Position numbers and translations under genes: made by a program. Source: Chiloscyllium plagiosum (Eukaryota). Taken from it: 64,000 bases of DNA. How positions within the stretch are numbered: position 1 is the stretch's first letter; each line of letters starts with the position of its first letter. Below are positions 6,335 through 53,887 of the stretch, piece by piece. Location of the stretch: assembly GCF_004010195.1 (NCBI RefSeq), contig NC_057718.1:83864924-83928923 (forward strand). The letters run 5' to 3'. Under the pieces are notes generated by a model. The model did not search any database. It saw nothing but the letters and a program-made list of their open reading frames with translations, and was not told the origin of the DNA.

Positions 6335-6369
6335 CACTAGCTTTCGGAGCGTCACTCCTTCATCAGGTG
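6335..6369 (-). ncRNA. Minimal type I hammerhead ribozyme motif (PLE-associated), core intact
   Basis: Minus strand reads cac CTGATGA a ggag tgacg ctcc GAAA g c TA gtg: stem I cac/gtg, CUGAUGA, stem II ggag/ctcc, GAAA, palindromic agct stem III and a CUA cleavage triplet. Confidence 0.7.
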
Positions 6370-7030: not shown

Positions 7031-7480
7031 TGCAATGGTGGTCACCTGTAAGGTGACATGAACCTAAGGTCCCAGTTGAGGCCCTCCCTATGGGTACCGA
7101 ACTTAGCTATCTTTTGGCCACCTTTTGCTGCTGCCTGTCCCGAAGTCTGCCTTGGAGGATGGTCACCCGAAGGTCCGAGGTCGAATGTCCAGGATCACTG
7201 AAGTGTTCCCCAACTGGGAGGGAACGTTCCTGTCTGTTGATTGTTGTGCGGTGCCCATTCATCCATTGTTGTAGCCTTTGCTCAGTTTCCCCAATGTACC
7301 ATGCCTCAGGGCATCCTTGCCTGCAACGTATTAGATAGACAACATTGGCTGAGTCACATGAGTACCTGCCATGTACAAGGTTGGAGGTGTCCCCTCGTGT
7401 AATGGTGGTATCTATGTCCACACTCTGACACGTCTTGCAGCGCCTACCGTGACAGGGTTGTATGGAGTTGTCCTGAGAGC

Positions 7481-8199: not shown

Positions 8200-8815
8200 C
8201 TGAGAGCTGGGCAGCTTGCTATGAACTATGATTTGTTTTGAGGTTTGGCCGTTGTTTAAAGGCATGTAGTGGAGATGTGGGGAAGGTCTTGGCGAGGTGC
8301 TCATCCTCATTGATAATGTGTTGCAGGTCACGAAGAACATGGCGTAATTTTTCGGTTCCTGGGAAGTACTGAACAATGAAGGGTACTCTGTCAGTTGCAG
8401 CACGTGTCTGTCTCCTGAGGAGGTCATTACAGTTCCTTGCTGTGGCACGTCGGAACTGGCGGTCGATGAGTTGGGCATCGTACCCTGTTCTTGTGAGGGC
8501 ATCCCTGAGTACTTCAGGTGCCGGTCACGTTCCTCCTCATCTGAGCAGATCCAGTGTACATGTAGGGCTTGTCCATAGGGGATGGCTGTTTTAATATGTT
8601 TTGGGTGGAAGCTGGAGAAGCGTAGCATTGTGAGGTTTTCTGTGGGTTTGCGGTAGAGTGTGGTGCTGAGGTGTCCACCTCAAAACCAATCACAACATTG
8701 TCATCAAACCAGCAGATAAAGGAGGAGCACCACACTCTACTGATCAAAACATGAACTTCTGGAGTTAATTTTGAAAATGTTGTATAGCTTTTAAAGCATA
8801 TTTGTGTTAATTATC

Positions 8816-9620
8816 AGAGTCATAGAGATGTACAGCACAGAAACAGACCCTTTGGTCCAACTGGTCCATGCCGACCAGATATCCCAACCCAACCTAGTCC
8901 ATATCCCTCCAAACCATTCCTATTCATATACCCATCCAGATGCCTTTTAAATGTTGCAATTGTACCAGCGTCCACCACTTCCTCTGGCAGCTCATTCCAT
9001 ACACGTACCACCCTCTGTGTGAAAAAGTTGCCCCTTAGGTCTCTTTTATATCTTTTCCCCCTCACCCTTAACCTGTGCCCTCTAGTTCTGGACTCGCCCA
9101 CTCAGGGAAAATACTTTGTCTATTTATCCTATTCATGCTCCTCATAATTTTATAAACCTCTATAAGTTCACCCTTCAGCCTCTGGTGCTCCAGGGAAAAC
9201 AGCCCCAGCCTATTCAACCTCTCCCGATAGCTCAAATCCTACAACCGGCAACATCCTTGTAAATCTTGTCTGAACCCTTTCAAGCTTCACAACATCCTTC
9301 CAATAGGAGGAGACACCAGAATTGCACGCAATATTCCAACAGTGGCCTAACCAGTATCCTGTATAGCCGCAACATGTCCTCCCAACCCCTGTACTGAATA
9401 CTCTGACTGAAGGAAAGCATACCAAATGCTGCCTTCACTACGCTATCTACCTGCGACTCCACTTTCAAGGAGCTATGAACCTGCACTCCAAGGTCACTTT
9501 GTTCAGCAACACTCCCTCGGACCTTACCATTAAGTGTATAAGTCCTGCTAAGATCTGCTTTCCCAAAATGCAGCACCTCACATTTATCTAAATTAAACTC
9601 CATTTGCCACTTCTCAGACA
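8816..9620 (-). mobile_element. CR1 LINE 3' portion (relatively young)
   Basis: ORFs 9280-9621(-) KWQMEFNLDKCEVLHFG...LYRILVRPLLEYCVQFW and 8820-9101(-) RTRGH...DLRGNFFTQRVVRVWNELP. The 3' tail ends in (ctctatga) repeats. Confidence 0.9.
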
Positions 9621-9621
9621 A

Positions 9622-9781
9622 AATCTTTTACCTGGGGTGGGGGAGTCCAGAACTAGAGGGCATAGATTTAGGGTGAGAGGGAATTAATTTAAAAGGGACC
9701 AAAGGGACAAGTTTTTCATGCAGACAGTAGTATGTGTATGGAATGAACTGGCAGAGGAAGTGGTGGAGGTTGGTACAATTT
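9622..9781 (+). mobile_element. CR1 3' fragment; its tail resumes at ~11536-11630 after a Rex1 insertion
   Basis: gagtccagaactagagggcatag...tggaatgaactggcagaggaagtgg, with the tail gtttctgtgctgtacatctcttatgactct at ~11595-11625. Confidence 0.7.
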
Positions 9782-11530
9782 CTACTGTAAACAACTGATA
9801 AAGTAAAAACGAGACAACATTCCCCCTGGGCCAAGGGTGCTACATGGACAGCACAAACTACACAATTGTACACTGCATAAAGTGCATAAGATGTCTAAAA
9901 CATGCAAGTTATAGTGTAATAGAAGAATTACAAATAATAGACATTTTTCTGGCAGCAATTCAAAGTCATGCAAAGAATTTCGGATGGAAAAGAGTCTGAT
10001 TGTACTGTGTTAAGGAGCCTGATGGCTTGGGGGGGGTGGGGAGAAGAAACAGTTGCACAGTCTGGCCATGAGGGACATATGCTCCGTTATCTTGTGCCAG
10101 ATAGCAGGAGGGAGAAGAATTTGTTTGAGGGGTGTTTGTGTTCTTCCACAATGCTCTTAGCCCTTTGGATGCAGCATGAGGTGTCAATGTCTGATGGAGG
10201 GAATAGAGACCCCACTGATCTTCTCAGCTGTCCTTAATATCCGTTGTAGGGTCTTGGGACCTGAGACGGTTCAATTCCCGAACCAAGCAGTGAGGCAGCA
10301 GCTCAGGGTACTTTCAATGAACCCTGTGTAGAATGTGGTGAGGATGCGGGGTGAAGTGGGCTTTCCACAACCTGCATAGAATGAGGAGATGCTGCTGTGC
10401 TTTCTTGACTATGCAGCTGATGTGGAGGGTCCAAGTGAGATTGTCCACCAGGTGTACACTAAGAAATTTGGTGCTTTTCACGATTTCCCCGGGGAGCTGT
10501 CAATGTTCAGCGGAGAGTGATCGCTCTGTTCCATCCTGAAATCAACAACCATCTTTTGCAACTTGTCCATGTTCAGAGATAGGTTGTTGGCTCTGCACCA
10601 ATCCAGTAGACACTGCACCTCCTGTCTGTATGCGACTCATCGTTCATGCTGATGAGACCCACTGCAGTTGTATCATCAGCGAACTTGGTGATGTGATTCA
10701 ACCTGTGCATCACTGCACAGTCGTGTGTCAGCAGGGTGAACAGCAGTGCGCTGAGCACACAGCCTTGGGGTGCCTCCATGCTCAATGATGGTGTTGATGA
10801 TGCTGTACCCAATCCGGACTGACTGAGGTCTGCCAGTCAGGAAGTCTGAGATCCAGTTACAATGGGAGCTTATTAGGCCCAGCAGACTCAGCTTTCCAAT
10901 CAGGTGCTGAGGAATGACAGTGTTAAATACAGAACTGAAGTCTATGAACAGTAGTTTGATGCAGGTGTCCTTCTTCAGGTGGGTGAGGGCCAGATGAAGG
11001 GTGGTGGAAATAGCATAATCTGTTGAGTGGTTTGGTCAATAGATGAACTGCAGGGTGTCCAGGGAAGAGGGCAGCAGGGCCTTATAATGCCTCATCACGA
11101 GCCTCTCGAAGCACTTCATGATGGGTGTTAGCGCAACAGGAGGGTAGTCGTTGAGACAGAATGTTGAAGACTTCCTTGTCACTGGGTTGGAACTATGGTG
11201 CAGCTCAGGGAGATGTTTAATGTATCCGTGAGAACATCTGCCAGTGAGTCAGAGCATCCTCTGACCACTCTGCCAGGGATGTTATCTGGTCCAGCAGCCT
11301 TACATGGATTGACCCTGCATAGGGTTTTTCTCACGTTGGCCGTGGTAAGACACAGCGCCTGGTTATTGGGTGGGATGGACTTCCTTGTTGCCATGTCATT
11401 TTGTGTCTCAAACCGTGCTTAAAAGTTGTTCAGCTCATCTAGGAGGGAGGCATCACCAGCAGGCGATGCTGTTTTGTGCTGGGTCATGCTCTGGATGCCC
11501 TTCCACATGCTGCTCATATTGCCGTTGGTT
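9782..11530 (-). mobile_element. Rex1/Babar-type LINE, RT region and 3' UTR, decayed
   Basis: ORFs 11179-11394(-) [16 protein letters not shown]...LADVLTD.LNISL and 10573-10812(-) [19 protein letters not shown]...[15 protein letters not shown], characteristic of Rex1 RT. Confidence 0.85.
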
Positions 11531-11781
11531 AGGAGCTCTGGTTGGAAGGACTGAATTCAGTTATGATATCTGGTCGACCCAGATGATTTGGACCGTTTCT
11601 GTGCTGTACATCTCTTATGACTCTGTGACTGTATTTACTTCATTTTGTAATGTAGTTGAAATGCTTATATTGACAGCGCAGTAAGAATATTATGATGTTA
11701 TCAGCCTTAATAAAGTAATATGAATTTTTTTTAAGAAGGAAGTTAGTTGAATATTTCCTCATTGCATCTTGTGTTCCTCCA

Positions 11782-12001
11782 TAGATGTTCTTTCACTGGA
11801 CACAAATCTCCCCTTATCTCCCAAGGCAATGGATAAGTAAATCTTAATTTAGCTTTCAGGTGCCCCGTCACTTACATAGCAATGTTCCTCCACACAGGAT
11901 CATTGTTATGTAAATAGTGGGGCACCTGAAAGCTAAATTAAGATCTACATTCATTGCCTTTGGGGATGAGTAGTGGTTTGTGTCTGGTGAAAAAACATTT
12001 A
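11782..12001. repeat. Long inverted repeat / hairpin (MITE-like or structured RNA)
   Basis: Arms 11782-11889 and 11896-12001 with a 6-nt loop (ccacac). Perfect 26-bp core atcttaatttagctttcaggtgcccc (11841-11866) pairs with ggggcacctgaaagctaaattaagat (11919-11944). Confidence 0.9.
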
Positions 12002-12107
12002 GTTTCTTAGCTACTTGCAAAGGATAGATACTTTGTTTAATTATGTATTGTAAAATATACTTTATTTCTAAAATAATGTCTCCTTCTTTCAGATTCTTTC
12101 AGGGTAG

Positions 12108-12257
12108 ATGTTTGTTTTGTCCAAACTTGAACTCTCCAAATCCACATCCATCCTTTTTGCAACCGCTTGTTTGAAAGACTTCATCCGAAATATCAGTTGC
12201 TGTAATGGAGCTGAAAAATTTAGATCCCAAATGAGAGAATCCATAACTGTAACTACA
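12108..12257 (+). CDS. Candidate coding exon of an unidentified gene (MFVLSKLELSK...RESITVTT)
   Basis: Pyrimidine-rich acceptor tctccttctttcagattctttcag (AG at 12101-12102), ATG at 12108, 50 open codons, donor ACA/gtatgt at 12258. Non-repetitive sequence, but no recognisable domain, and the opposite strand is also open. Confidence 0.2.
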
Positions 12258-12937
12258 GTATGTTTTTCCTTATTGATCTTGTTCCAATGGAGGTGTGGAG
12301 GAGTATGCTGTTGCTGGTTTCTCATTCCTCTGTGGGTTACTACATAAAATAAAAGTACTCTTTCCAGGAACCAAGATCACCAATTAAATATCTTGTCTAT
12401 GGAAGATTTTAAACGCAAGATATATCAACTTGGTTTCTAAATAAGAATGTTTGTTGGTTCATTGTCAAAACAAAACTCACAATAAACATGCAATAATTGG
12501 TCAATACTGAGAATCAGTAATTTAGAAGCTTAAATGCTTATACATTTTAAAAATCTCCAGAACACACAAATGCACACAAACAGGCACATGCGTATAAACA
12601 TGCGCTATCCTTTGCAGTGATTGGCTTTCTGAAAAAAAATCTTTTTGGCCCCCAGGTTATTCTTGAAGGCAAAGGGAAAATGTATAAGATGTTCTAGAGA
12701 CTGTTTGCTGTGATGTTCTGGTACATCGGATAAAATCATTAATCATGCACAATCGCCTCTGAAATCTTGCAGTCACTGAATTTTCCAGAATCAAGCTATC
12801 TTGATGTTCTTTCACTCTTCCAAAAGAACATGCAGTTTTCAATCTGATCTGATGTAATATGTTTTCAGTTCACAAATGGGAGAGATCAGCTGGACAAATT
12901 ATTCTTATCTGGTTTGCTTCCAACTCAGTTATTTGTT

Positions 12938-13148
12938 GAGAAAGTGAGGTCTGCAGATGCTGGAGATCAGAGCTGGAAATGTGTTGCTGGAAAAGCGCAG
13001 CAGGTCAGGCAGCATCCAGGGAACAGGAGAATCGACGTTTCGGGCATAAGCCTTCCTGAAGAAGGGCTTATGCCCGAAACGTCGATTCTCCTGTTCCCTG
13101 GATGCTGCCTGACCTGCTGCGCTTTTCCAGCAACACATTTCCAGCTCT
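12938..13148. mobile_element. PLE family A inverted pseudo-LTR pair (palindromic insertion) with 10-bp TSD
   Basis: 84-bp perfect arms at 12969-13052 and 13065-13148. TSD gttatttgtt at 12928-12937 and 13149-13158. Confidence 0.85.
13053..13086 (+). ncRNA. Minimal hammerhead ribozyme motif, core intact
   Basis: ttc CTGAAGA a gggc ttat gccc GAAA c GTC gat: CUGANGA, 4-bp stem II, GAAA and a GUC triplet; stem I is very short. Confidence 0.6.
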
Positions 13149-15141
13149 GTTATTTGTTAGCTTTCCTCCAGCATAACTAGATGAAAGAAGTACATCTCCA
13201 AGTTCATCACTGTTAACAAACAACCTCAGTCAGGCCTACGACAAATGAAATAGTAATCACTAATCGTTGGTTTCTCAGAAGTCTTGCTTTTTTTAAAAAA
13301 AAAAGTGCATTGTCCACAGTGAACTTGGAGAGTTTTAAAGAAACTAGTCTAAGTATGTCCACAAAATAAATTCCTTTTTATACAATCCATCAAAACCTAT
13401 GTATCCAAATAGTGTTAAATGTAAAATGTTTTTGCAACATCCTCTTTGAAGTTTATGCAACCTCTTGATACATGGGCTGTGTCATCCCTCTCCAACTGAG
13501 TTCCCCAAATCTGACTCAGTGGGATTGCGTTTCACTGATTTCACTGTTAGCTTTACAGTTGTAGCTGGAGAGTATCTACCAATGGCTTCTGTTCTGTCCT
13601 AGAACTGATATTTCGAGAGCACCTCTGCCCCATGGTCTTTGATCCCCTGCTCTTCCTCATTTCCATACAGCCCCTAGGTGACAGCATCTAAATATCTGGG
13701 TCAAATGCAACAGGTTTATTGAGTGATTATATCTGTTGCTACATCTCTACCAGTTTTGTTGACATGTTCGCTGTGTCTGTTATTAGACTGTTGATCAAGT
13801 CTAGGATCAGCCGCAGTTTTTCCCAATTAAAATATGAATGTTATAAACTTTGGTACTGATTTTTCCCTATTAGCAGTCTTAGGTTGGACAACAATATTCA
13901 AAATATTGTTTTCTCATTTTTCTGGAGCTTCCAATTATTTCTCTTCTGAATTGCAGAAGTTTTTAATCTCTAACATGGCTGCCCTCTGGCCCTGGCTCAA
14001 TGCATATGCTGCTGCAATGTGCATTAATGTTTTTGACTTGACAAAATCAATGGTTTCATTGATGTTCTGGCCACCCTCCCGTATTCATGCTCTGTAAACT
14101 TCTGCCCATTGAATATTTGCTTAATTCATATTCGTTCTTGTTCACTACTGCTCTTGTCCTTGCCCCATTGGGCAGTCCCTTGTAGTCAAGGATTACTTGT
14201 TTCAACACATAAATTGAGTTCTTGGGTGCTGAAAGAGTCCAGTGCATTACCTGAAACCTCTTTCACAGGTTGGATAGACAGTGGTTGAGCAACTAGGAGG
14301 GTGGCATATCTTGATGCTTGAGCAAGCTGTTGGCGATGAGTTGCGAGGTATACAAATCTTTCCCAGTAGCTTACCCTCCACTTAGGGTGGTCAGAAGCCA
14401 GGATTTCCTAGGTATTGTTGGGTACTTTTTCAAGGAGACTTTGAAATCCTCTATCCTCTTTTCCTCTTTGGATTTGCTTGCCATTGTTAAAGCTGACCAG
14501 CATTGATCTCAGCCCTCCAATGCTTCAAACATTAAAATTATTATTTTGCGTACTTAAATTCTTTCATGCTATGAGTTATTCAATATTATAAATAGAGGCA
14601 AATTATAAACAAATTAGAAGGAACAAAAATTTAGGGAGGCTGTGGGAAAGGGGATCTTTGGGGGAAAAAAAAAATCATTTGGTGAAATCAAATGGAATTT
14701 CCGAACCCTTCTTGCAGAAATTAAAATCAGGAAAAGTTATTGGAGAAGAACTGGAAAATAATATGCAGTAGCTCTGAAGAAATACAGTTTAAGTAGTTGT
14801 GGGAATTTGTGGCATTGTGAAACATTTTGGAGAGTCTTTGATTAATAATGGGTAGAAGGAAACCCGAGGTTTGAACTTTTGGTTTACATTTGTTACTTTC
14901 CAATCTATTCAATGAGGATTCTTTCAGAATTGAAGGAATTATGGAAGATCAAAGCCCAAATGTTATCTGTAACTATTTTGATAATCCTAGGATGCAGGCC
15001 GTGAAGTTGAGGTGATTTATAATTTTTAAATCTCCATTTTGTTTAAGTTGCTTTATGGATGGAAATCTACTTGTGGCTGGCCTCAGCTGGTCTGTTTTCC
15101 ATGATTGCCTATAAACGAGCTTGCTGTGAAAAAGGATCTTT

Positions 15142-27054: not shown

Positions 27055-27869
27055 GCCCTTCATCGGGATTCCTGATGCTGCCTGATCTGCGCTTTTCCAG
27101 CAACACACTCTCAACTCTGATCTCCAGCATCTGCAGATCTCACTGTCTCCATGTATGCAGCAAAACCTGGATAATCTTTCAGGCTAGGGCTGAAAAATGG
27201 CAGCTATTATTGCCACCCCACAAGTGCTAGGAAATTACTGTCTCACTGATAAGAAAGTGTCACCATCTCCCATGGACTTCCTCAGTATTACATCAATGAT
27301 TCCTGATCATTGACTAGATCAACTAAAACCTGCATAAGTACAGAGATAACAAGAGCAGGTTGCAGTGAATGATTCACCTCTGGACTCCCAGAGCCTTGCC
27401 ATCATGTACACTGCTATGATAGAATATTGCTGATTTATCTGCAACTTGAACAATACTGAAAAACTAGGTATCATCTAATACAAAGCAACAAGAATAAATA
27501 GTCATTTGGTAGAATAGGCCTTGAGCACTGCTGAAACAAAATGTGTTCCCTGAGCTTTTCATTGTGCACTCTTCAGGACAATTTGTAAGGAATACTAAAG
27601 TAAAGGGAATATTACAATTGTGCCACTGCTGAATTGGTTGCCAAGTGACCTCTTATTGTCATATTTGTTGTCATGGAGCATAGGCCACCTAAAAGATTGA
27701 CCGTTAACTGCCAGACTCTGAATTTTAATCCAGACCAGTTCACCGTGTGGTTAAGGCATTGCCCAAAGAATGACACGATACATCTGCATGTTCTTTGTGT
27801 CTACAAAGACATATTGTTTCTTAGATTCATAAGTGAGCCACATTACACTGCGAGTGCAAGAGGTAACGC

Positions 27870-29999: not shown

Positions 30000-32900
30000 A
30001 CTAATACTGGCTGAGTAGGATCTGCATTATTGATACGTTTCACGTCTCAACTACGTTGAGGTTGCAGATTGAGTAAATTGTGTAATAAAGCAGGTAACAA
30101 GGGTTTTTAACCTAATAATAGCAAGAGTGAAAGTTATAAAGTGATAAACTGTGACATGAAGGGATAGAAAATATGTTTTTGAGAAAATAAACAGATTAGG
30201 CTGGCGGTTAATGTGATAACGCTAAACTAAAAGCTGTGTATTTGAATAAATGTAGCACTTCAGAACAAAAGAAATGAATTGAGAGAGAATATATGAATTT
30301 CAATTTGTGCTGTGACCTGATCGGAGACCTGGCTTCAGGATAACAAAAGTTGTGTCTGAATACTGAACAGCATATGACATTTAGGATGCACATGAAATTA
30401 CGAAAAGATGAAGGGTTAGCTCTTGTTAATTAATCCTGATGTCACAGTAGAGAGAGTAACCCAAGGTCATAAAACGATAATGTAGAGTTGGTTTTAGAAG
30501 AGGTGAGAAATTATAAAGGCAAGAAGTCACTTCAAGAAGTGGTGTGCAGGTTCTATTGAGATGCAATAGGACTTGGGAGTTTGTCAGAAAGGATCAGCAA
30601 TCTTGAGTGAGTTTGATGGACATAATGCCAGGAATAATCAGATGAACTAAGGCAATGTGGTTGAGTTCAGGAAAAGGTTTTGATGTTGTTTCTCAGAACA
30701 GCAGATTCTGCGGCCAACTGGAGAGCAGGCTCTGTTGGACCTTTGTTTCATGCAGTGAGTTAAAATTGATTTAGTGGCCTCATAATGAAGTGAAGCTACA
30801 TCTCAACAAATCATTGGGCAGACCTTATTTGTAGTATTTTGTTCAGTTCTTGGCACCTTATTCAAGGACGAACATCAAAGTCCTGAAAAAAGTGCAAAGG
30901 AGATTTAGTAGAATAATACCAGCAATGAAGGATTTTATATACAAGGAAAGAGGGGAGAAATTGGGCCTACTCTCCTTGGAACAGAGAAGATTAGAGGTAA
31001 GTTTATTGAGGTGTTCAGAGTTGTGAACAATTTTGGTTGGTATCTCAGCAACTGAGGGTTGCAATTTCAAGATAGTTATCAAGGAAGGTAGGAGTAAGGT
31101 GAGGAGAAATGTGTTTCCTCAGAGTTGTTAGGATTTGTAATGTGCTCACTGGGAAAGTTGGGGAGACAGATTCTAAGGGAGGTTTCAAAACATAGCTGGA
31201 TATATATTTAAGTGACGAATTTAGAGGGCTGCAACGATGGGTTTGGAGAATGGTATATTGGACCAGACAAGACCCCTCAAATTATTTTAAGTACCTAGAT
31301 TCTAACTCTTGCTTACTTTAAAGGCAAATGAGAATGCTGTGTTCCAGATGCAATGTGACTCATCAAATTCCTCAACGTTAAGCAAAAACACAACTTATTT
31401 AAACACTTTATTTCTTTTGTTTGTATTTTAACTAAAACTTAACTGTGGATAATTTAACGGAATAATAGATGGAGCAACCATTACTAATTAACTGTTCCAA
31501 GATAGTAACATCCCATAAACACCTCCTTGGCAACAATGGCAACTTCAGAAAAATAGATTTGTCCTAACGGGTAACCTAGCTTCTAGCTGTAATGGAGAGA
31601 GAGAAAAGATAGTTTCTACTACTTCAAGCACACAACAGCAACTGTTTAAAGCTAAATCAAAAATTTAAAAATAACACTAGAAATCCTGGTTTGAGAGAAC
31701 TGACCACACCCATCCAGGCTGCCTCCATTGTTTTAACGTTTTTGAAAAAAAAACCCAAGGCCTAACAAGCTGTTTACCTTTATGGTTTTGGTAGACTGCT
31801 TGGTGCCTCTGCCTTACAACCGGTCTTCAAAAAAAAACCAGAACAAAATAACCTCTTCAAGCCACAACATTGCCACAATGGGACTAGCTGGATAACTCTT
31901 TCAGGAACTGGTACAGATGTGATGGACCAAATGACTACCACCTGTACTGTAAATTTCTAAGATTTCTATGCGTTCCTGAGCAAGTAACATGGTGTGGATG
32001 AAGAAAATCTGGTGGATGTATAGGACTTGGATTTCTAGAAGGCATTAGATATAATGCTACAAATAGTATTGCAGAAAATCAGGGTTCATGGTATCGGTGG
32101 TAACCTTCGGATTGTAGATTGATGAACTAACAGGAAACACATTAGACATAAATGGATCATTTTCTGTCTGGCAAGATATGAGTTGCGTGCCACAGCAAGC
32201 AATGCTTAACTTATAAATTGTATATTAATATCTTGGATGAAGGTACCGAAGGTATGCTTGCTAAATTTGCTGATGTCACAATGACAGCAAGGAAAACAGT
32301 TTGTAAACTGGACATAAAGTGGCCACAAAGATTTAGAGAGGTTAGGTGAAATAGACAAGATCTGCAAATGGAAGATAATGTTGGAAAAACATAAAATTGT
32401 CAATTTTTGGTAGAACGAATGAGTGTACAAGTGAAATGATAAGAGATGGTAGAACTTTCAGATGCAGTGGATGTAGATGCTGTTTGTCCATTGAGTCACA
32501 AAAGACTAATATGGAGATACAGGAAGTGCTTAGGAAAGCTGATAGAATCATCTTGTTTATAGTGAGTTGAATTGAATTTAAAATTCAGGAAGTTATGCTT
32601 TACTTTCTGGGGCATTGGTGAGACAACATGATAGAGTTCAGTGTGTCATAGTAATCTCTCCCTTTAAGGAAGGATGTAAATGCATTGGAAGCAGTTCAGA
32701 GAAAGTTTACTCAACCAATTCTTGCCATGGATAAGTTAACTTGGAGTATTATTTGGACCAGCTCAGCTTGTATCCGCTGGAGATAGAAGTTCGAAGAGGC
32801 AATTTGATTGACTAATAGAAGATCCTGAGGAGCCTTCACAGATATAGAAAGGATGATTTTTCTTTTGGGAGAATTGGAAGTAGAGTTGAGTTTTGAAAAG

Positions 32901-33239: not shown

Positions 33240-34480
33240 CTTGTGACTCAGGACAGGAACTGCTGCCAGTAAAGGCTGTTGAAAATGCATTACCATCCTG
33301 TCCTGGTCAACCAATGTCAATACAATGGTCAAGAAAGAATAACGTCACCTCAACTTCCTCAATAGGCTAAGGAAATTCAGCATGTCCACAATGACTCCTA
33401 CAATTTTTATTGATACACTTTTGAAAGCATTCTGTCTGGTTGCATCACAGCTTGGTATGGCAACTGTTCTACAGAGGGCCATGAACACATCTCATTCCCA
33501 TCATGCAGATCAGCCTTCCATCCATGTCCATATCATCAAAGCCCGCTCCCTTTCCAGTTATACTCTATTCCCTCCTCTTCCATCAGGCAGAAAATATACA
33601 AGTTTGAATGTACATGCAAACAGTTTTGAAGATCAAATTTTTCCCCACTGTTACCAGACTTTTGAACCACCTCTCATGTTAAATTTGACCTCTGTCTCTG
33701 TACCTTGTGACGATGCTTTCACTTTAAAAAAGGTTCTTTTGTCTTGGGTTTTTTTGTGAAGAGAGGTTATAAAGGCAGAAGTGTCAACTCAGCTATGACA
33801 GACAGCCTAAATAAACAACTTCGGAGGCCTTTACCTTTTGTTTTAAGAAGTTGGAAGAATTGGAACAACTTGAATAGGAGTGGCCAGTTCTCGCAGCTCA
33901 GACTTTCTAGTTTGCTTTTGCTTTAGCAATCAAAAGCTGTTTGGGATTCCAGAAAAGATGGAGCTTCTGTGAATGATTCCTAGTTGCTACTTATTCTGAA
34001 ATCTCTCTTAATGTTGTTTTCTCCTGGATTGGAGAACTGCACTTAAGAATTTATGTCTGAATTTACCATGTTGCCAAGAAATGTGTGAATGGGGTATAAC
34101 ATATTGCAACAGTTAATTAGTAATAGGTACTGCATCTGTTATTCAGTTAAACTTTTCAATGGTTTGGTTACTCAAAATTCCTCTTTGTTTTGTTTTGTAT
34201 TTTAAGTATTGTGTTTAAATAAATTGTTTTGCATAAAGTCACATCACATCTGGAAGATGCACTTGACATCTATCTTCTAAAATGAGCAAAAGTCAGGGTT
34301 GAGGCTCCTTTCTTAAAATATTTTGAGGGGTCTGGTTTGGTCCATATCTACCTTTTCTGTGGCTGTAACATTGTACTCTGTTCTGTTACCCTGATGCACT
34401 TTGTATGGTACGATCTACCTGATTATCACACAAAGCAATACTTTTCACTGTATCTCGGCACAAGTATTATGAATTAATCA
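33240..34480 (+). mobile_element. Rex1/Babar LINE 3' fragment split by a solo LTR
   Basis: Reads SWSTNVNTMVKK...L.FL.RLRKF.MS...ESILSGCITAWYGNC; the 3' UTR continues after 34353. Confidence 0.7.
33706..34349 (+). mobile_element. Solo LTR with 4-bp TSD
   Basis: Starts tgtgacg, contains aataaa at ~34218; TSD acct at 33702-33705 and 34350-34353. Confidence 0.75.
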
Positions 34481-35319: not shown

Positions 35320-36103
35320 GTATTAGGCAAGAACTTTCAAAAGCTGATTGGGGTCAGATGTTCGCAGGTAAAGGGACAGCTGGAAAATGGGAAGCCTTCA
35401 GAAGTGACATAACGAGTTCAGGTGAAAGGAAAGGCTGGTATGTATAGAAAATGCTAGATGCCTAAAGAAATTGAAAGTTTGGTTAAGAAAAAGAAGGAAG
35501 CATATGTAAGTTGTAGACAGGATAGGTCGAGTGAATCCTTAGAGTATAAAGGCATTAGGAATATACTTAAGAGGAAAATCAGGAGGGCAAAAAGGGGACA
35601 AGAAATAGCTTTGGCAAATAGAATTAAGGAGAATCCAAGGGGATTTTATAAATACATTTAAGGACAAAAGGATAACTAGGGAGAGAATAGGGCCCCTCCA
35701 AGACCAATAAGGCGACCTATGTGTGGAGCCGAGGAGATGGGGGAGATAGTAAACAAGTATTTTGCATCAGTGTTTACTGTGGAGGAGGGCAGGGAAGATA
35801 TAAAATGTAGGGAAATAGATGGTAACATCTTGAAAAATGTCCATATTACAGAGGAGGAAGTGCTGGATGTCTTGAAATGCATAAACCTGGATAAATCCCC
35901 AGGACTTGATCAGGTGTACCCTAGAACTATGTGGGAAGCTAGGTAAGTGATTACTAGGCCCCTTGCTGAGATACTTGTTACATCGATAGTCACAAGTGAG
36001 GTGCTGGAAGACTGTCGGAAGGCTAACGTGGCACCACTATTTAAGAAAAGTGGTAAGGATAAGCCAGAGAACGATAGACCGGTGGTGGGCAAGTTGTTGG
36101 AAT
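35320..36103 (+). mobile_element. CR1 LINE ORF2 middle fragment
   Basis: ORFs 35458-35661 (IRRAK...LANRIKENPRGFYKYI), 35719-35946 (NKYFASVFT...KSPGLDQVYPR) and 35947-36207 (ANVAPLFKK..KDKPEN.RPV); ends at the ERV LTR. Confidence 0.85.
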
Positions 36104-39100
36104 TGAGAATGTGTATAGGGTATAGGCAGGCAGGGAAAGAGTTAAGTTCTGAGTTTTGTGCAACAAGAGGTTCAGCTGAGCATGACTCAGACCAGATAAG
36201 AACTTAATTAGCATTGGAACGCTGGAGGCAAGGGTAATGGGTTAACAAGGTGCAAAAGCAGTCATTATGTAGAGCCATTTAACAAGATGACGTAGCATTC
36301 AATATGTAACGTCAGTTAACAAGGTGAAAAGTATCCATTGTATGAATCCAGTTAACTGTCAATGTATAATGGAAAAGGGTTTGGTCTCTGCTATTGATAC
36401 TCGTTAATTACAATAGTTACCAATTAATATGTATGTTGCCTTATCTGGATGCTCCTCCCTGTGAAATGACTGTATTGTTCATTGAGAAACTGCTGTTCCA
36501 GAGAACTCAGGCCCCTGTGCACATGGGCAATTGTTCTCTCTCCCTCCAGGGCCCAGAATAAAGATGAAGAAGGTAAAACTATACTGTGTTTCTGAGCGTT
36601 TTGCTTCGACTGGTGGGGTGGGAGTGAGATAATATTTGCCTAGTCGGCAGGATCCAAACGAATAGTTACGATTGGATGGTATCAGCGGCCACCCAGAACA
36701 TCGGTGTTTCGAGATGGACGGACCTACAAGGTAAGATTTAAGTCCTTGGTCCCTCTCGATATTCCTATGTGCTGGAGACAATCCCCTCACTCAGTCACTC
36801 TCTGTTCTGCGATAATTAGCTCAGTCGAGAGATAGAATTTTGCAAGAGCGCTAGCAGGCAGAGATTAGAGTCCTCTGCGCTGCATTGGGGGTGGGGGTGT
36901 GTGATTGAGATTAGAGTCCTCTTCGCGGCACTGGGGTTCAAGTCCCCTGGGGTGGGTTTGATTGAGGTTCAAGTCCTCTCCGCGATACTGGGGTTCGAGT
37001 CTACTGGGTAGATTGATTTCAGGTTCGCACTGTGCTGAGCTTTGAGCTCTCTGTGTTTAATTGGGGTTTGAGTTCTCTGTGTTTCAGTGGGATTTGAGTC
37101 CCTGTGAGGAGTAAAGTGAGAAAGGAGTTAAAACCCCTAGTGGTGAAATTTGAGGCTCTGCGAATCTTTGTTCTAGGGAAGAGAGTGGCTTGGATTCCGG
37201 CGCCATGTGATCTGCAGCAACGGCTTTCTCTTTTTATTAGTGTAATTTCACTGAAGAGATGCAAAAAAAAATGAGAAGTGCTGAAATTAAGGTTGGACTA
37301 ATACTTGGGTTGGAAAAAAAGAACTACATGTAGATTGTGCCATGTTGAGATTGTTGTTTAAAAATTTTGATTTGTCAAATTACTGGTTCAGAAAATCCTT
37401 TTTTAAGTAACTGTTTTGCCTTGTTTGAATCAGGGTCTCAGTGTGTTTTGTGGGCTATGTAATGGGGCAGATTTTGTTTTTACATTGAAACTGTACAACA
37501 TTATGTCCTTTTTAAAATGATCAAACTTGTAAACTCAAAATAAATTGAGTGCCTTGAGCCCCTGATGTGTTTGCAATTCTGCACTGCCTGTGTTTAAAAA
37601 GAAAATTGGGGCAAGTGATCGTGCTGTAGACAGATGAGAGTATTGTATTATAATATTTTTGCTGCTGTGTTTTTAATGCGGAGTGTTCACAAAAGGAAGA
37701 GTGCATTTTTTGTTTGATGTTTAGTTAAGATTTTCGAGAGAACATGAGGCTGAGCTGCATAAATTCTGTTAATTATCGTTAAGTCTTCATTGGCCCCCTT
37801 CATATTGCAAATTCAAAGAATGTTGATCTCTACCAAAGTTGCCACTGTAATTTCAATGTTTTATTTGGGAAGTTTCATTTGGAGACCATATTTTAAAATA
37901 TTCAGCATTTGTTTCCCATGAAAATTTGAGATTTAAATCTGAACTGAAACTGCCTCTTCAATTGCTAAAGCACAGGAAACATTTTGTTGTTTTCTTGCTG
38001 TTCCAGACTTTCGAAATACTTTTCCTGACACCTTTCATATTAGCCAAGTATCAATTTGTAAAAGGGAAATAATTTTTGAATAACCTGAACGGAGGCAACC
38101 GAGGGTTAGATTTTTGTTTGTAATTGACTGAATTGTTTAGGCAGTACAATTTAGAAGTTTATGGATTGTATAAAACTTGATAATGTCATAAATAGTGAAC
38201 AGAATAACAGACTTCAAGAATTCAGAGAAGGTTGAAATAGGCAGACACAATTTAGTGTAGTTAAATGTGTGACAGTCTTCATATTGATATCCACCTTGGT
38301 AAGGAAGGTATGAGAGAGGAAATGCAAAGATACTTTCAGCACCTAACATTGTCTCTAGAGTTTCTCCATTCACAGGTAAAGCACACCTTAGGACCACCTC
38401 CTACCCCTCCTCAACCTGATCCAACAGATTCAATCAGCTCCCTAGTCAAAAGTGAAGAACCTAGCAACAATGAAGAGGAGATCAGTACTTTTTTGTCAGT
38501 GGCCTTCCTACGGACATTAAACCATGTAAGCTTTACCTTGCCTTTTGATCATTTAAGGGATATGAAGATTCACTGATTAAGCTAACATCACAACCTCCAG
38601 TTGGCTTTGTTACATTTAACGGCAGAGTGGGAGCAGATGCGGCAAAGAATGCTGCATTCACCTAGCCTGCAGCTGCTCCACTGCACGCTCAGATGTGCTG
38701 GTATCCTCCATCTGAAGCATCTCTGGAAGAACAGAAGTCTTGTCAGTGTTAAGTATTTAACTGCCCTCATCCAAGAAATCAGATTTCTCTGAGGAGTGAT
38801 GCAAGAACAGACTGAATTTTGTTTTCAGGTTGGACTTTACTGAAGGAGGCTTTAGAGAACTGGCTTGTTTCCACTCGACTTGGAGGGGATGGAGTGGTCA
38901 CTAAGGACTGTGGATTTAAGAACTTCACTGGTGAATCTTTTTTCCACATGCGAGGATTCTTCAAACTCTAATTGCTGTAATGGACTAGCAGTTTTTGTTG
39001 TTATCATCATGGTATGCTGTGTGTCAATAACTTGCTTTAATACTGGCTGTCAGAGTCTTATGAAAGCTGGTAGTACCATCTTGATGATTATCATGTGTTG

Positions 39101-39660
39101 ATAAAAGGAGGGAATGAGAATTTTTGTGTTTTGTGAGGCAGGAAATTCAGCTCAGCTTGACTGAAATTAAGAGAGGTTTGTGAAGCAAGAGGTTCAGCTG
39201 AGTATGACTCAGTTCAGATAAGAACTTACAGTTAACATTGAGGTGATGGATGCAAAGGTAATGGGTTAACAAGGTGGAAAAACATTCATTATGTAGAGCT
39301 ATTTAACAAGATGAGGTAGCATTTGGTATGTAAAGGCAGTTTAACAAGGTGAAAAATATTCATTATGTGGAATCAGATATTCATTGTGCAACAGCAGATG
39401 ACTTAATCTTTACTATTGACATGTTGATTGTAACGGTCACCCAATCAATATGTATGTTGTCTTATCTGGATGCTCCTCTTTGTAAAATGACTATATAGTG
39501 CATTAAGAAACTGCAGTTCCAGAGAAGACCATGAACTCATGTCACTGTGAAAATGGGCGATCGTTCTCTTTCCCTCCAGGGCCCAGAATAATGGTGAAAG
39601 AGATAAAACGACACTGTGTCTCTGAGTGTTTTGCTTTAACTGAGGCGGGAAATGGGAAGG
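36104..39660 (+). mobile_element. Internally deleted ERV-like provirus (5' LTR 36104-36634, 3' LTR 39115-~39655)
   Basis: Two ~530-bp direct repeats, both starting tgagaat. PBS directly after the 5' LTR; PPT aaaaggagggaa (39103-39114) directly before the 3' LTR; integrase-like LHIDIHLGKEGM and env-TM-like GLAVFVVIIMVCC remnants. Confidence 0.8.
36636..36653 (+). promoter_or_regulatory. Primer-binding site complementary to tRNA-Ser
   Basis: ttgcctagtcggcaggat matches TGGCGTAGTCGGCAGGAT (reverse complement of the 3' end of vertebrate tRNA-Ser AGA-type plus CCA, recalled from knowledge) at 16/18 positions. Confidence 0.75.
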
Positions 39661-39661
39661 C

Positions 39662-42105
39662 AGGTGATCACTTTCATGACAGTGACCACAATTCAGTTAT
39701 GTTTTCTTTAGCAATGGAAAGGCATGGGGAAATACATCAGGACAAGATTGTAGCTGGGGGAAAGGCAATTATGATGTGATCAGGCAAGACCGAGGGTGCA
39801 TCGGATGGGGAAGGACACTTCATGGGGTGGACACAGTTGAAATTTGGAGCTGGTTCAAGGGGCAGCTATTGTATGTACCTGTCCGGCAGGGAGGAAGTGG
39901 TTGAGTGAGAGAACCAGTGTTTACCAAGGAAGTTGAATTTCTTGTCAAGAGGTAGAAGGAGGCTTATGCTGAAAATGTGTTGCCAGAAAAGCGCAGCAGG
40001 TCAGGCAGCATCCATGGAGCAGGAGAATCGACGTTTTGGGCATGAGCCCTTCTTCAGAAGCTCTCTTCCAAAATCTTGCAAGGATGCCTTCCTTGAAGAA
40101 GCTCTCTTCCAAAATCACTTTCTCCTAGAAGATTTTAACCTACTGCAAATCCTCTTGCTAGGATGCCTTCCTTGAAGAAGCTTTCTTCCAAAATTTCCAG
40201 CAACACATTTTCAGCTCTGATCTCCAGCATCTGCAGTCCTCACTTTCTCCTCGAAGATTTTAGCCTACTGCGAATCCTCTTGCAAGGATGCCTTCCTTGA
40301 AGAAGCTCTCTTCCAAAAGCTCCTTGGATGCTGTCTGACCTGCTGCGCTTTTCCAGCAACACATTTTCAGCTCTAATCTCCAGCATCTGCAGTCCTCACT
40401 TTCTCCTAGAAGGAGGCTTATGTAAAGATGTGACGTGAAGTGGGTGCTTGAGAGTTACAAGTTAGCCAGGAAGGACCTAAAGAGCCAGGAACAGACAGGA
40501 GATATCTTTGGCAGGTAGGATCAAGGAAAACCCCAAAGTTTTCTATAGGTATGTCAGGAGTAAAAGAATAACTTTGATAAGATTAGCGGCCAGTCAAGGA
40601 CAGTAGTGGGAAGTTGTACGTGGAACTCCGAGGTAGGAGAGGTGCAGAATGAATATTTTTTTCAGTATTCACGCAATAAAAGACAATTTTGTCAAGGAGA
40701 ATACTGAGGTACAGCCTATTAGACTAGACTGGTTTGGGGTTCATAAGGAGGAGGTGTCAGCAATTCTAGAAAGTATGAAAATATGTGTCTCCTGGGCCCG
40801 TTGGGATTTATCCTAGAATTCTCTGGCAAGCTAGGGAGGACATTGCAGAGCCCTTGGCTTTGATTTTTATGTTGTCATTGTCAACAGGAATAGTGCCAGA
40901 AGACTGGATGATAGCAAATGTTGTCCCCTTGTTCAAGAAGGGGAGTAGAGACAATCCTGGTAATTGTAGACTAGTGAGCCTCAGTTCTTTTGTGGGCAAA
41001 GTTTTGGAAAGGAGTATAAGAAAGAGGAATAATTTAATTAGGGCTGGTCAACACGGTTTTGTGAAGAGTAGTTTGTGCCTCACAAGCCTTATTGAGTTCT
41101 TTAAGAGGATGACCAAACAGATGGATGAGGGTAAAGCAGTTGATGTGGTGTATATGGATTTCAGTGCAGCATTTGATAAGATTCCCCACAGGAGGCGAAT
41201 GCAGAAAATACGGAAGCATGGGACTGAGAGTGATTTAGTGGTTTGGATCAGAAATGGGCGAGCTGAAAGAAAACAGAGGTGGTGGTTGATGGGGAATGTT
41301 CATTCTGGAGTTCAGTATCTAATGGTGTACCGCAAGGATTTGTTTTGGGGCCACTCCTGTTTCACTTTTTTAATGACTTGGATGAGGGGGTTAGAAGGAT
41401 GGGTTCGTAAAATTGCGGACAACACTAAAGTCGGTGGAATTGTGGACAGTGCGGAAGGATGTTGCAGGTTACAGAGGGACGTAGATTAGCTGCAAAGCTG
41501 GGCTGAGAGATGGCAAATCTAGTTGAATGTGGAAAAGTGTGAGGTGATTGACTTTGGAAGGAGTAACAGGAATATAGAGTACTTGGCGAATGGTAAGATG
41601 TGGATGAGCAGAGCGAAATCTGTGTCCATGTGCATAGATCCCTGAAAGTTGCCACCCAGATTTATAGGGTTGTAAAGAAGCCATATGGTGTGGTTCGCTT
41701 TTATTGGTAGAGGGATTGTGTTTCAAGCCATGAGGTCATATTGCAGCTGTACACAAATCTGGCGTGGCTGCACTTGGACTACTGTGTACAGTTCTTGTTG
41801 CTGCATTATAGGGAGGACGTGGAAGCATTGGAAAGAGTGCAGAGGAGGTTTACTCGGATGTTTCCTGGTATGGAGAAAAGGCTGAGGGACTTGAGGCTGT
41901 TTTTGTTAGGGAGAAGGTTAAGAGGTGACTTAACAAATGCAGACAAGATGATCAGACGATCAGGTGGATAGTGAGAGCCTTTTTCCTCGGATGGCGATGG
42001 CTTGCATGAGGGAACGTAGCTCTAAATTGAGGGGTGATAGATATAGGACAGATGTCAGAGGTAGGTTCTTTACTCAAATAGTAGTAAAGGATGGAATGCC
42101 CTGCT
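39662..42105 (+). mobile_element. CR1 LINE ORF2 (end of endonuclease through RT), decayed
   Basis: ORF 40785-41489 reads SPGP.GIYPRIL...VPEDWMIANVVPLFKKGSRDNPGN...QHGFVK..CLTSLIEFF...VDVVYMDFS.AFDKIPH. Confidence 0.9.
39969..40406. mobile_element. PLE family A pseudo-LTR concatemer inserted in CR1 with 16-bp TSD
   Basis: TSD tagaaggaggcttatg at 39953-39968 and 40407-40422; inverted and tandem pLTR pieces inside. Confidence 0.85.
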
Positions 42106-46479: not shown

Positions 46480-48632
46480 TGTGGTATGTTTCAGATGAAG
46501 CAGTTGAAGCTCCATCTGCCCTGTCAGTTGGACATCGATGGTCTAATGATATCATCTTGCAGAGAAGCAGGGGCGATATCTCTGGTACTTTGGGCAATAT
46601 TTATTCCTCCAGTAACAACACAAAAAGACTTTATCTTGTCATTATCATATTGCTGTTTTTGGGAGCTTACAGTGTAGAAATTGGGACATTTCAACATGAC
46701 AACATTCACTAAAATTCCAAAACAAATGTAGGGTATAGACAGGATAGATCGAGTGAATCCTTAGAAGAGTTCAAAGGAAGTAGGAGTATACTTAAGAGGG
46801 AATTCAGGTGGGCAAAAAGGGGACATGAGATAGCTTTGGCAAATAGAATTAATGAGTATTTTGCATCAGTATTTACTGTGGAAAAGGATATGGAAGATAT
46901 AGACTGGAGGGAAATAGATGGTGACATCTTGCAAAATGTCCATATTACAGAGGAGGAAGTGCTGGGTGTCTTTAATGCATAAAAGTAGAAAAATCCCTAG
47001 GGCCTGATCAGGTGTACCCTAGAACTCTGGGAAGCTAGAGAAGTGATTGCTGGGCCTCTTGCTGAGATATTTGTATCATTGATAGTCACAGGTGAGGTGC
47101 TGAAAAACTGGAGGTTGGCAAATGTGGTGCCACTGTTTAAGAAAGGTGGTAAGGACAAGCCAGGGAACTATAGACCAGTTAGCCCGACATCTGTGGTGGG
47201 CAAGTTGTTGGAGGGAATCCTGAGGGACAGGGTGTACCTGTATTTGGAAAGTCAAGGACTGATTAGGGATAGTCAACATGGCTTTGTGTGTGGGAAATCA
47301 TGTCTCACCATCTTGATTGAGTTTTTTGAGGAAGTAACAAAGAAGATTGATGAGGGCAGAGTGGTAGATGTGATCTATATGGACTTCAGCAAGGCGTTCG
47401 ACAAGGCTCCCCATGGCAGACTGATTAGCAAGGTTAGATGTCACTGAATACAGGGAGGACTAGCCATTTGGATACAGAACTGGCTCAAAGGTAGTGGTGG
47501 AGGGAGGGTTGTCCTTCAGACTGGAGGCCTGTGACCAGTGGAGTGCCACAAGGATCGGTGCTGGGTCCTCTACTTTTTGTCATTTACATAAATGATATGG
47601 ATCTGAGCATAAGAGGTACAGTTAGTAAGTTTGCAGATGACACCAAAATTGGAGGTGTAGTGGACAGCGAAGAGGTTTACCTCAGATTACAATTGGATCT
47701 TGTCCAGATGGGCCAATGGGCTGAGACATGGCAGATGGAGTTTAATTCAGATAAATGCGAGGTACTGCATTTTGGGAAAGCAAATCTTAGCAGGACTTAT
47801 ACACTTAATGGTAAGGTCCGAGGGAGTGTTGTTGAACAAAGAGAGCTTGGAGTGCAGGTTCATAGCTCCTTGAAAATGGAGTCGCAGGTAGATAGGATAG
47901 TGAAGAAGGCGGTTTGGTATGCTTTCCTTTTATTATTCAGAGTATTGAGGACAGAAGTTGGGAAGTCATGTTGTTGCTGTACAGGACATTGGTTAGGCCA
48001 CTGTTGGAATATTGCTTGCAATTCTGGTCTCCTTCCTATCAGAAAGATGTTGTGAAACTTGAAAGGGTTCAGAAAAGATTTACAAGGATATTGCCAGGTT
48101 TGAAAGATTTGAGCTATAGAGAGAGGCTGTACTGTTTTCCCTGGAACGTCGAAGGCTGAGGGGTGACATTATAGAGGTTTACAAAATTATGAGCTACATG
48201 GATAAGGTAAATAGGCAAAGTCTTTTCCCTGGGGTGGGGGAGTCCAGAACTAGAGGGCATAGGTTTAAGGTGAGAGGGGAAAGATATAAAAGAGACCTAC
48301 GGGGCAATTTTTTCACACAGAGGGTGGTACGTGTTTGGAATGAGCTGCCAGAGGAAGTGGTGGGGGTTGGTACCATTGCAACATTTGAAAGGCATTTGGA
48401 TGGGTATATGAATAGGAAGGGTTTGGAGGAACATGGGCCGGGTGCTGGCAGGTGGGACTAGATTGGGTTGGGATATCTGGTCGGCATGGATGGGTTGGAC
48501 CGAAGGGTCTGTTTCCATGCTGTATATCTGTGTCTCTATGACTCTAAATACTTAATAGACTGCAAAATACTTTGATAGATCCAGTGGTTAGGGTAAAGTT
48601 GTGAAAGATGCTATACAAATGCACATCTATCT
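46480..48632 (+). mobile_element. Deu-domain SINE (46480-46727 and 48546-48632) split by a CR1 insertion
   Basis: Deu-like core gggcaatatttattcctcca...ttatcttgtcattatcatattgctgtttttgggagctt; the tail gtgaaagatgctatacaaatgca resumes after the CR1. Confidence 0.6.
46728..48545 (+). mobile_element. Relatively young 5'-truncated CR1 LINE (RT and 3' tail)
   Basis: ORFs 47043-47447 and 47531-48055 read NYRPVSPTSVVGKLLE, SQHGFV.GKSCLT, DFSKAFDK, GVPQGSVLGPLLFVIYIND, SKFADDTK. Tail ends ctctatgactct. A premature stop (47445) and frameshifts make it non-functional. Confidence 0.92.
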
Positions 48633-49609: not shown

Positions 49610-50039
49610 TTTCTTCTGCCTTGGCCTGCTATTCATCGCCAGACCATAGCAACACGACGGCTGGAGGAAGAGTGCCTCATCTTCCGCCTCGGAACCCTCC
49701 AACCACAAGGGATGAACTCAGATTTCTCTAGTTTCCTCATTTCCCCTCCCCCCACCTTGTCTCAGTCAAATCCCTCAAACTCAACACCGCCTTCCTAACC
49801 TGCAATCTTCTTCCTGATCTCTCCGCCCCACCCCCACTCCGGCGTATCACCCTCACCTTGACCTCCTTCCACCTATCACATTTCCAACACCCTCCCCCAA
49901 GTCCCTCCTCCCTACCTTTTATCTTAGCCTGCTGGACACACTTTCCTCATTACTGAAGAAGGGCTATGCCCGAAACGTCGATTTTCCTGTTCCTTGGATG
50001 CTGCCTGACCTGTGCTTTTCCAGCAACACATTTTCAGCT
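49610..50039 (+). mobile_element. PLE family A 3' end with hammerhead motif (49953-49979)
   Basis: Reads RRLEEECLIFRLGTLQPQGMNSDFSSF (PLE ORF C-terminus); CTGAAGA-gggc tat gccc-GAAAcGTC. Confidence 0.85.
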
Positions 50040-50067
50040 GTTATTCAGTTGTTTACTTATGCAATTC

Positions 50068-52744: not shown

Positions 52745-53887
52745 CCCCTCCCCCCATGCGCTTTCTCTTCAGTCTCGTGCGTGCTGTCTCTCGCTCTCTC
52801 TCTCTGTCTCTCTCTCTCTGTCTCTCACTCTCCCATGCGCTTTCTATTCAGTCTCGTGCGTGCTGACAGTCTCTCTCTGGCTCTCTCTCTCTCGCTCTCT
52901 CTGTCTCTATCTATACATCTTTGGAAAAGCAAATCTGTCTCTATCTGTATATATCTCACTCTCTTTCTATTTATCTATATATATTATATATGTGTGTATA
53001 TATATAAAACTCTCTGCCTCTATTTCTCTGTTTCTCTATCTCTCTTGTGCGCTTTCTCTTCAGTCTCGTGCTCTCTCTCTGTCTCTCTCTCTCTCCGTCT
53101 CTGTCTTGTGTGCTCTTCAGTCCCGTGCTCTCTATCTCTCTACCTCTGTCTTTCTCTCTCTGTCTCTCACTCTCTCTCTACCNNNNNNNNNNNNNNNNNN
53201 NNNNNNNNNNNNNNNNNNNNNNNNNNNNNNNNNNNNNNNNNNNNNNNNNNNNNNNNNNNNNNNNNNNNNNNNNNNNNNNNNNNNNNNNNNNNNNNNNNNN
53301 NNNNNNNNNNNNNNNNNNNNNNNNNNNNNNNNNNNNNNNNNNNNNNNNNNNNNNNNNNNNNNNNNNNNNNNNNNNNNNNNNNNNNNNNNNNNNNNNNNNN
53401 NNNNNNNNNNNNNNNNNNNNNNNNNNNNNNNNNNNNNNNNNNNNNNNNNNNNNNNNNNNNNNNNNNNNNNNNNNNNNNNNNNNNNNNNNNNNNNNNNNNN
53501 NNNNNNNNNNNNNNNNNNNNNNNNNNNNNNNNNNNNNNNNNNNNNNNNNNNNNNNNNNNNNNNNNNNNNNNNNNNNNNNNNNNNNNNNNNNNNNNNNNNN
53601 NNNNNNNNNNNNNNNNNNNNNNNNNNNNNNNNNNNNNNNNNNNNNNNNNNNNNNNNNNNNNNNNNNNNNNNNNNNNNNNNNNNNNNNNNNNNNNNNNNNN
53701 NNNNNNNNNNNNNNNNNNNNNNNNNNNNNNNNNNNNNNNNNNNNNNNNNNNNNNNNNNNNNNNNNNNNNNNNNNNNNNNNNNACCGCGCTCTCTCTCTCT
53801 CTACCGCTCTCGTGCCACCGCTCTCGTGTCCCCTCTCTCGTGCCCTCTCTGTCACGCTCGTGCTCTCTCTGTCTCTGTCTCTCTCTT
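52595..53887. repeat. (CT)n-rich microsatellite/minisatellite with a 600-nt N-gap (53183-53782)
   Basis: CT runs with a recurring unit tgcgctttctcttcagtctcgtgc. Confidence 0.9.

Follow-up and report, generated by a model that had tools for sequence, protein, structure and literature searches.

We analysed a long terminal repeat (LTR) element in a 64,000-nt stretch of the Chiloscyllium plagiosum genome (the window, to whose positions all coordinates refer; all features described for the element lie on the + strand). The element consists of two LTRs and an interior of 2,480 bp, in agreement with the ~2.5 kb estimated in the initial annotation. In this interior, the sole coding sequence that could be identified is a host RBPMS2 mRNA captured by the element, and it is this cargo that defines the family. 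The two direct repeats, which start with TGAGAAT at 36104 and 39115, showed 79.5% identity over 516 columns when aligned end to end (Kimura two-parameter distance, K2P, 0.245), so that the two ~530-bp repeats initially noticed were borne out. The 5′ LTR (36104–36634) is 531 bp in length and carries AATAAA at 36557, while the 3′ LTR (39115–39657, end approximate) lacks its last ~10 nt. Both LTRs start with TG and the 5′ LTR ends with TA; the tip of the 3′ LTR was lost at its junction with a long interspersed nuclear element (LINE) which, like another LINE on the left side, we take to be of the CR1 type from its ORF2-like peptides.

To these repeats adjoin a primer-binding site (PBS) at 36636–36653 and a polypurine tract (PPT) at 39103–39114. 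To delimit the family, public contigs were aligned onto positions 36050–39750 at 80% likeness, which gave 9,339 records in run X1 (organism A), 9,464 in run X13 (organism B) and 2,287 in run X17; 24 of the approximately 22,000 pieces were available as individual contig records. Contigs that departed exactly at 36104 with mutually unlike flanks numbered 181 in X1, 158 in X13 and 51 in X17 (flank agreement, 0.36–0.37), which fixes the start of the 5′ LTR and indicates many independent insertions. The start of the element as first drawn was thus confirmed, but its end at 39660 was not: the 3′ LTR stops at approximately 39657, and the CR1 begins at 39658, where the loose ends of 46 and 38 contigs were found. 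The element therefore has direct repeats at both ends, a sharply delimited family boundary and an adjoining PBS and PPT, as is characteristic of LTR retroelements.

The captured sequence lies at 38448–38752 and is a processed RBPMS2 retrocopy, which was overlooked in the initial annotation of the interior. Positions 38495–38656 matched RRM_1 of Pfam (E 6e-4, profile positions 3–58 of 70), and a phmmer search of the cargo against PDB detected the RBPMS2 structure 2m9k (E 5.5e-19). Compared with shark RBPMS2, the cargo contains, in order, the N-terminus (38448–38489, in another frame), the first ~80% of the RNA recognition motif (RRM) with 41 of 54 residues identical and, behind an in-frame gap at ~38650, the C-terminus up to the position of the host stop. 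The C-terminal motif is of the RBPMS2 type and not of the RBPMS type. The insert is free of introns across three joints: the one before VRTLF, where 81 of the 119 matched host proteins (121 examined) carry EEE and the rest carry 34 other strings; the joint SKQ/PVG, the site of an insertion in host isoform P0131; and the joint after LHAQ, where the alternative ends P0126 and P0128 begin. The absence of an intron at three joints where host isoforms diverge indicates that the source was a spliced mRNA. The middle of the cargo is missing in frame, by 85 codons relative to the short isoform and by 120–121 codons relative to the long isoform, and profile positions 59–70 of the 70 in the RRM are lost with it. 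The two sides of the gap end in N-A and H-A, the codons of which must share at least three bases, suggesting a jump across microhomology.

The copy in the window is a decayed pseudogene with no sign of constraint. A frameshift near 38490 and stops at 38546 and 38663 interrupt its frame, the host start codon has no counterpart in the cargo, and 13 of 53 RRM residues were changed, compared with 6 of 53 in the related protein XP_043546817.1 and none of 53 in six shark host proteins. A functional RBPMS2 retrogene was ruled out by the frameshift, the two stops, the incomplete RRM and the 13 changed residues. Around the cargo, neither an A-run of six or more nor a flanking direct repeat of seven or more nucleotides was detected, a weak negative in a copy of this age.

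Next, we examined whether the cargo is a trait of the family. A search of 1.84 billion representatives returned a sole match, XP_043546817.1 (P0122) of Chiloscyllium plagiosum, which is named 'RBPMS2-like' in RefSeq. This protein has the same gap junction as the cargo in the window and terminates where the cargo has its post-junction stop. It also carries the P-to-S change of the cargo, agrees with it at 20 of the 30 residues that precede the host start, and keeps an open frame of 109 codons. The gap junction was found in 2 of 131 proteins and the P-to-S residue in 2 of 130 matched proteins, both times in the window cargo and XP_043546817.1. Since the two differ otherwise, they represent separate copies, and the gap, the stop and the substitution that they share were therefore fixed before amplification. 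Judging from these common features, XP_043546817.1 is most likely a copy of the cargo of the element and not a true paralog. When XP_043546817.1 was compared with metagenomes, three loci were detected; these appeared to be RRM genes of the RBPMS family from other organisms and matched neither the LTR nor the interior. An LTR 20-mer was absent from metagenome contigs.

The contigs gave the same result. Two contigs approximately 85% like the locus, and derived from two organisms, bridged the gap without a large insert, namely, X13 record 14 (38608–38914, 40 differences) and X17 record 20 (38490–38783, 47 differences), and X1 records 4 and 7 joined the cargo to both upstream and downstream sequences of the element. 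The summed depth over the cargo was 3,871–8,349 in X1 and 4,065–7,291 in X13, compared with ~17 for contigs identical to the locus. The element thus carries an intron-free host insert of processed origin with neither poly(A) nor target-site duplication (TSD) at the cargo (weak evidence in an old copy), which was amplified with shared derived marks and has decayed at this locus.

The PBS is of the tRNA-Ser type and matches the complement of the tRNA-Ser 3′ end at 16 of 18 positions, as initially described, while the next-best match in the window on both strands was 13 of 18. Its 18-mer is the opening of a human tRNA-Ser template oligonucleotide given in PMC3299991. Rfam and ARAGORN detected no match in the window. 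A putative major splice donor, AAG/GTAAG (36728–36735), is the sole AGGTRAG of the interior, and the strict donor form occurs twice on the + strand of the window; the retroviral-style donor proposed near 36731 therefore holds at the level of sequence. Downstream of it, repeat analysis detected four imperfect leader repeats of ~57 nt with words like the tRNA T-arm (36847–37105), which represent a probable packaging region. These are followed by an AT-rich sequence of the family (37201–38264, 33.6% GC) with high copy number (summed depth, 1,220–14,547 in X1) and no recognizable open reading frame (ORF). A predicted splice acceptor, consisting of a pyrimidine tract ending in CAG/G (38350–38376), is located just upstream of the cargo. 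The PPT, which was correctly placed in the first reading, consists of 12 purines abutting the 3′ LTR and is the longest purine run of the element, tied with one at 37312.

Two peptides flank the cargo. Upstream, an HxxxH-G-M..YF peptide (38274–38336) may represent the N-terminal half of the zinc-binding domain of integrase, although the CxxC half was absent behind it in all three frames. When the interior was shuffled 500 times, the pattern H-x3-H-x-G appeared in 22 of the shuffles and an extended pattern like that of integrase in none; the integrase and anchor patterns used for the shuffles were set post hoc. Downstream, a hydrophobic 19-mer with CC and a short open tail (38982–39101) showed a mean hydropathy of 2.8; when its 350-nt region was shuffled, this value was attained in 2 of 500 cases, and an anchor plus CC arose in none of 2000. 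The HxxxH peptide and the hydrophobic anchor are arranged in retroviral gene order. An integrase remnant at 38274–38336, and an env membrane anchor with a remnant of the cytoplasmic tail at 38982–39101, are both plausible but unproven assignments.

The stretch between the cargo and the anchor (38753–38981) could be host 3′ untranslated region (UTR), decayed env or both. It holds the string at ~38806–38850 that was at first taken to be like an immunosuppressive domain (ISD). The string is present, but its NR..LD spacing is wrong; neither NR..LD in the correct form nor QNR was found in any + frame. By the usual ISD-to-CX6CC spacing, a CX6CC was absent behind the string, and a lone CX7CC was located directly before the anchor, so that an ISD is not supported. 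An ISD followed by CX6CC is named among the features of gamma-type env in bioRxiv 10.1101/2021.11.23.469661.

The two LTRs are unevenly diverged. Their identity per 50 bp ranged from 62% to 88%, and the tip of the unique 3′ (U3) region showed 12 transversions versus 2 transitions. The LTRs differed far more in the blocks 39115–39172 and 36354–36403 than elsewhere. The U3-tip type of the 3′ LTR was rare among the aligned contigs and was found in single contigs only (depth of 17.5 in X1 and 24.5 in X13 at 39130–39172), and in paralog contigs an LTR start of the 36104 type was located directly behind the same PPT. The LTRs are thus visibly diverged, as initially stated, but a clock based on their alignment was rejected: the shark rate used in PMC4422223 gave an age of ~500 Myr and faster rates gave 50–110 Myr, and divergence as uneven as this yields no safe date. 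Together with the skewed U3 tip, the uneven divergence and these ages suggest that the locus is probably a recombinant between LTRs, or that its LTRs belong to two subfamilies. The element is old, and the family is present in organisms A and B.

On the left side, the element is flanked by a CR1-type LINE fragment (approximately 35340–36103), which is cut by the LTR near the start of the reverse transcriptase (RT) region and shows 82–85% identity to a CR1-like copy at 46720–47212 that continues past the point of the LTR start. The continuation of this fragment behind the element was looked for and not found. On the right side, a second, 5′-truncated CR1-type LINE (39658 to approximately 42110) abuts the 3′ LTR and contains a nested insert at ~39900–40430. 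No TSD was found around the element. The lack of a TSD and the abutting CR1 were both noted initially, the one as the consequence of the other; both stand, and to them we add the CR1 on the left and the loss of the 3′ tip. Given that the left CR1 does not resume downstream and that the 3′ LTR ends short of its tip at the second CR1, a deletion or recombination appears to have removed both the 3′ tip and the TSD.

Some other features of the region were observed. The majority letters just before 36104 formed one short word in all three contig runs (agreement of only 0.36), which might reflect either a target preference or a common repeat of the host. The insert nested in the right-hand CR1 includes a short repeat that itself contains tandem and inverted copies (39968–40412), and related pieces were found at 1–225, 12938–13154, 27074–27150 and 49850–50045. 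Long, gapped inverted arms lie ~2–3 kb from each other at 31249–31775 and 33727–34355 and are 76–91% complementary; they could derive from a DNA transposon that has long inverted repeats, or from a single repeat present twice in opposite orientation. ORF fragments at 7107–8679 encode GIY-YIG-like and RT-like peptides, which we take to be of the Penelope type. Runs of N (assembly gaps) are located at ~53180–53780 and near 50100, the larger one inside a CT-rich tract.

Based on these results, we consider it quite probable that the element belongs to a non-autonomous LTR family that arose from a tRNA-Ser-primed endogenous retrovirus (ERV) by capture of RBPMS2 mRNA through template switching and was spread by a helper, the copy in the window being decayed. 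In germ cells, spliced RBPMS2 mRNA would have been packaged together with viral RNA. Reverse transcriptase would then have switched onto the mRNA and back, leaving the cargo between the integrase-like stub and the env tail, in what may be the env slot behind the acceptor-like tract, and a further jump over a short microhomology would have excised the central part of the cargo. The gap, together with the stop that follows it and one substitution, was in place before the element, which retained its LTRs, PBS, leader and PPT, was copied to what appear to be roughly hundreds of loci. With these parts intact, its RNA could be copied by the proteins of a helper, presumably the Gag and Pol of an intact element. 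The present copy has since decayed, losing its 3′ tip and TSD, with two LTRs that diverged unevenly. A template-switch model for host-mRNA capture is described in PMC5131818, and a precedent for capture in PMC4299795. Transcripts of rbpms2 are reported to be maternal and abundant in zebrafish oocytes and abundant in the oocytes of fish and frog, and RNAs of rbpms2a and Xenopus hermes to localize to the Balbiani body (PMC6049948); in axolotl, vegetal and primordial germ cell localization is reported (PMC10620976). That the cargo stems from an oocyte gene suggests that the element was active in the female germ line.

Several observations weigh against this origin, the missing TSD among them. Pfam searches with six read-through frames and 14 shorter queries detected no retroviral family, and RRM_1 was the sole accepted match. 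Matches to Sperm_Ag_HE2 (E 2e-4 to 0.013; 20.4–22.2 bits with the short queries, the cut-off being 20.1), COX7C and Apc5_N were judged to be chance. With an E threshold as high as 10, PDB searches with the peptides detected unrelated chains and nothing retroviral, and homolog searches with the HxxxH peptide (six candidates) and the env-like peptide (13 candidates) gave none. In the Atlas, the HxxxH peptide had three unnamed matches (<0.9) and the env-like peptide had none, and no match to the HxxxH peptide was found among viral contigs. When the frame containing the HxxxH and hydrophobic peptides was used as the phmmer query, the single match was on the cargo side. Furthermore, summed depth does not equal copy number and can be read only as 'hundreds' of copies, and no contig spans the whole element among the records listed. 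The summed depth just upstream of the cargo (9,123–14,547 in X1) exceeded that over the cargo, suggesting that many members of the family may be cargo-free. Finally, neither a helper element, a host RBPMS2 cDNA nor a cargo-free parent was seen, and the switch points and microhomologies are therefore inferred. Of the initial proposal of a non-autonomous ERV-like element with integrase and env remnants, the non-autonomous LTR element in shark, with high copy number, was supported. The integrase zinc-finger-like peptide (~38274–38335) and the env transmembrane-like segment (~38981–39020) are both present, the patterns of the former and the hydrophobicity of the latter being rare among shuffles, but neither gained support from profile or homolog searches.

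These negative results bear on the nature of the carrier. The same capture and amplification could have taken place in a non-autonomous Ty3/Gypsy or other non-retroviral LTR element, in which case the env-like anchor would be due to chance or to host UTR. A tRNA PBS and a PPT also occur in Gypsy elements, and the integrase-like stub fits these equally; the lack of env and pol profile matches and of the ISD and CX6CC agrees with such a carrier. In contrast, the donor in the leader, the acceptor-like site and the CC-bearing anchor before the PPT, with its low frequency in shuffles (2/500 and 0/2000), are in retroviral order, and we hold a carrier of the Gypsy kind to be unlikely.

A second alternative concerns the role of the cargo. 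A truncated RRM protein made from a spliced env-type RNA, or the RBPMS2 RNA stretch itself, could have aided the element in entering the germ plasm of the oocyte or in remaining there. A germ-plasm mRNA in the env slot would then provide a route for retroelement RNA to the Balbiani body, or the truncated RRM would interfere with oocyte RBPMS2, and this would have driven the family to hundreds of copies. The upstream acceptor-like site, the gap that is in frame, the 109 open codons of XP_043546817.1, the Balbiani body localization cited above and the high copy number are consistent with such selection. However, the end of the RRM is missing, and the localization of Rbpms2 to germ granules is reported to require an intact RNA-binding domain (PMC6049948), which together weaken the idea; in addition, both the window copy and XP_043546817.1 are changed at many residues that are invariant in the host proteins. 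We regard this role as improbable, on an estimate that overlaps with that for the proposed origin, and the cargo is most likely a passenger. If the role were real, a retroelement would have borrowed a germ-plasm address from its host.

Slightly more improbable still is that a LINE-made RBPMS2 processed pseudogene landed in an integrated provirus and that the chimera then founded the family: the window is full of CR1-type LINEs, decay could have erased the poly(A) and TSD, and the exact edges of the cargo are not fixed, but neither an A-run nor a flanking repeat was detected beside the cargo, and the lack of gag and pol is what replacement through template switching, but not simple insertion, would produce.

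The capture of a host mRNA by an LTR element and its mass amplification are thus documented in a cartilaginous fish, with a gene needed for oogenesis in fish as the cargo. RefSeq lists at least one copy as a genuine 'RBPMS2-like' gene, and the family can therefore inflate gene counts and confuse read mapping for RBPMS2. The many copies make it testable whether a captured cargo is a passenger or an aid.

The closest known systems are CrocERV31, with nectin3, and CrocERV29, with KIT-ligand, of crocodilians (Chong et al. 2014, PMC4299795). As described there, these are old ERV lineages that, like the present family, captured a host mRNA at or next to env and occur in several copies and in more than one species; in CrocERV31, nectin3 stands in place of env, and retrotransposition is proposed as the way in which the lineage spread. 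The two cargos are reported to be nearly full length, to retain open frames that are under purifying selection and to number 6 and 9 copies (PMC4299795). In the present family, by comparison, the cargo lacks its middle and decays freely, gag and pol are unrecognizable, and the depth suggests hundreds of copies. LTR-mediated retrocopies (Tan et al. 2016, PMC5131818; HERV-K/FAM8A1 is cited there) share with it an intron-free host sequence between parts of an LTR element, the lack of poly(A) and TSD, and later rounds of non-autonomous retroposition. According to that report, those cases are young and of low copy number, with microsimilarity measured at the switch points, whereas the switch points here are inferred; no shark is named among its cases in the available text.

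Among cartilaginous fish, the CmiERV lineages (Han 2015, PMC4422223) and the Chiloscyllium ERVs with gamma-type env (bioRxiv 10.1101/2021.11.23.469661) are described as epsilon-like or snakehead-virus-like, and some exceed 500 copies in these accounts. Such ERVs are the likely pool from which the parent element came. Shark ERVs are defined by pol and env, whereas the present element has neither in recognizable form. With HERV-S and the class III ERVs, we presume that the Ser PBS is the sole feature shared. Among the literature matches listed, no shark ERV with a Ser PBS was found, and none of those listed for an RBPMS2-bearing LTR element mentioned 'rbpms2' (Repbase and Dfam lay outside this search). 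In acutely transforming retroviruses, a host mRNA is transduced into a retroviral genome, usually with dependence on a helper. Compared with these viruses (v-src and v-kit are named in PMC4299795), the present element is a germ-line fossil with a non-oncogene cargo and no intact product. The principle of gene capture is itself known, and this family is a clear new example of it.

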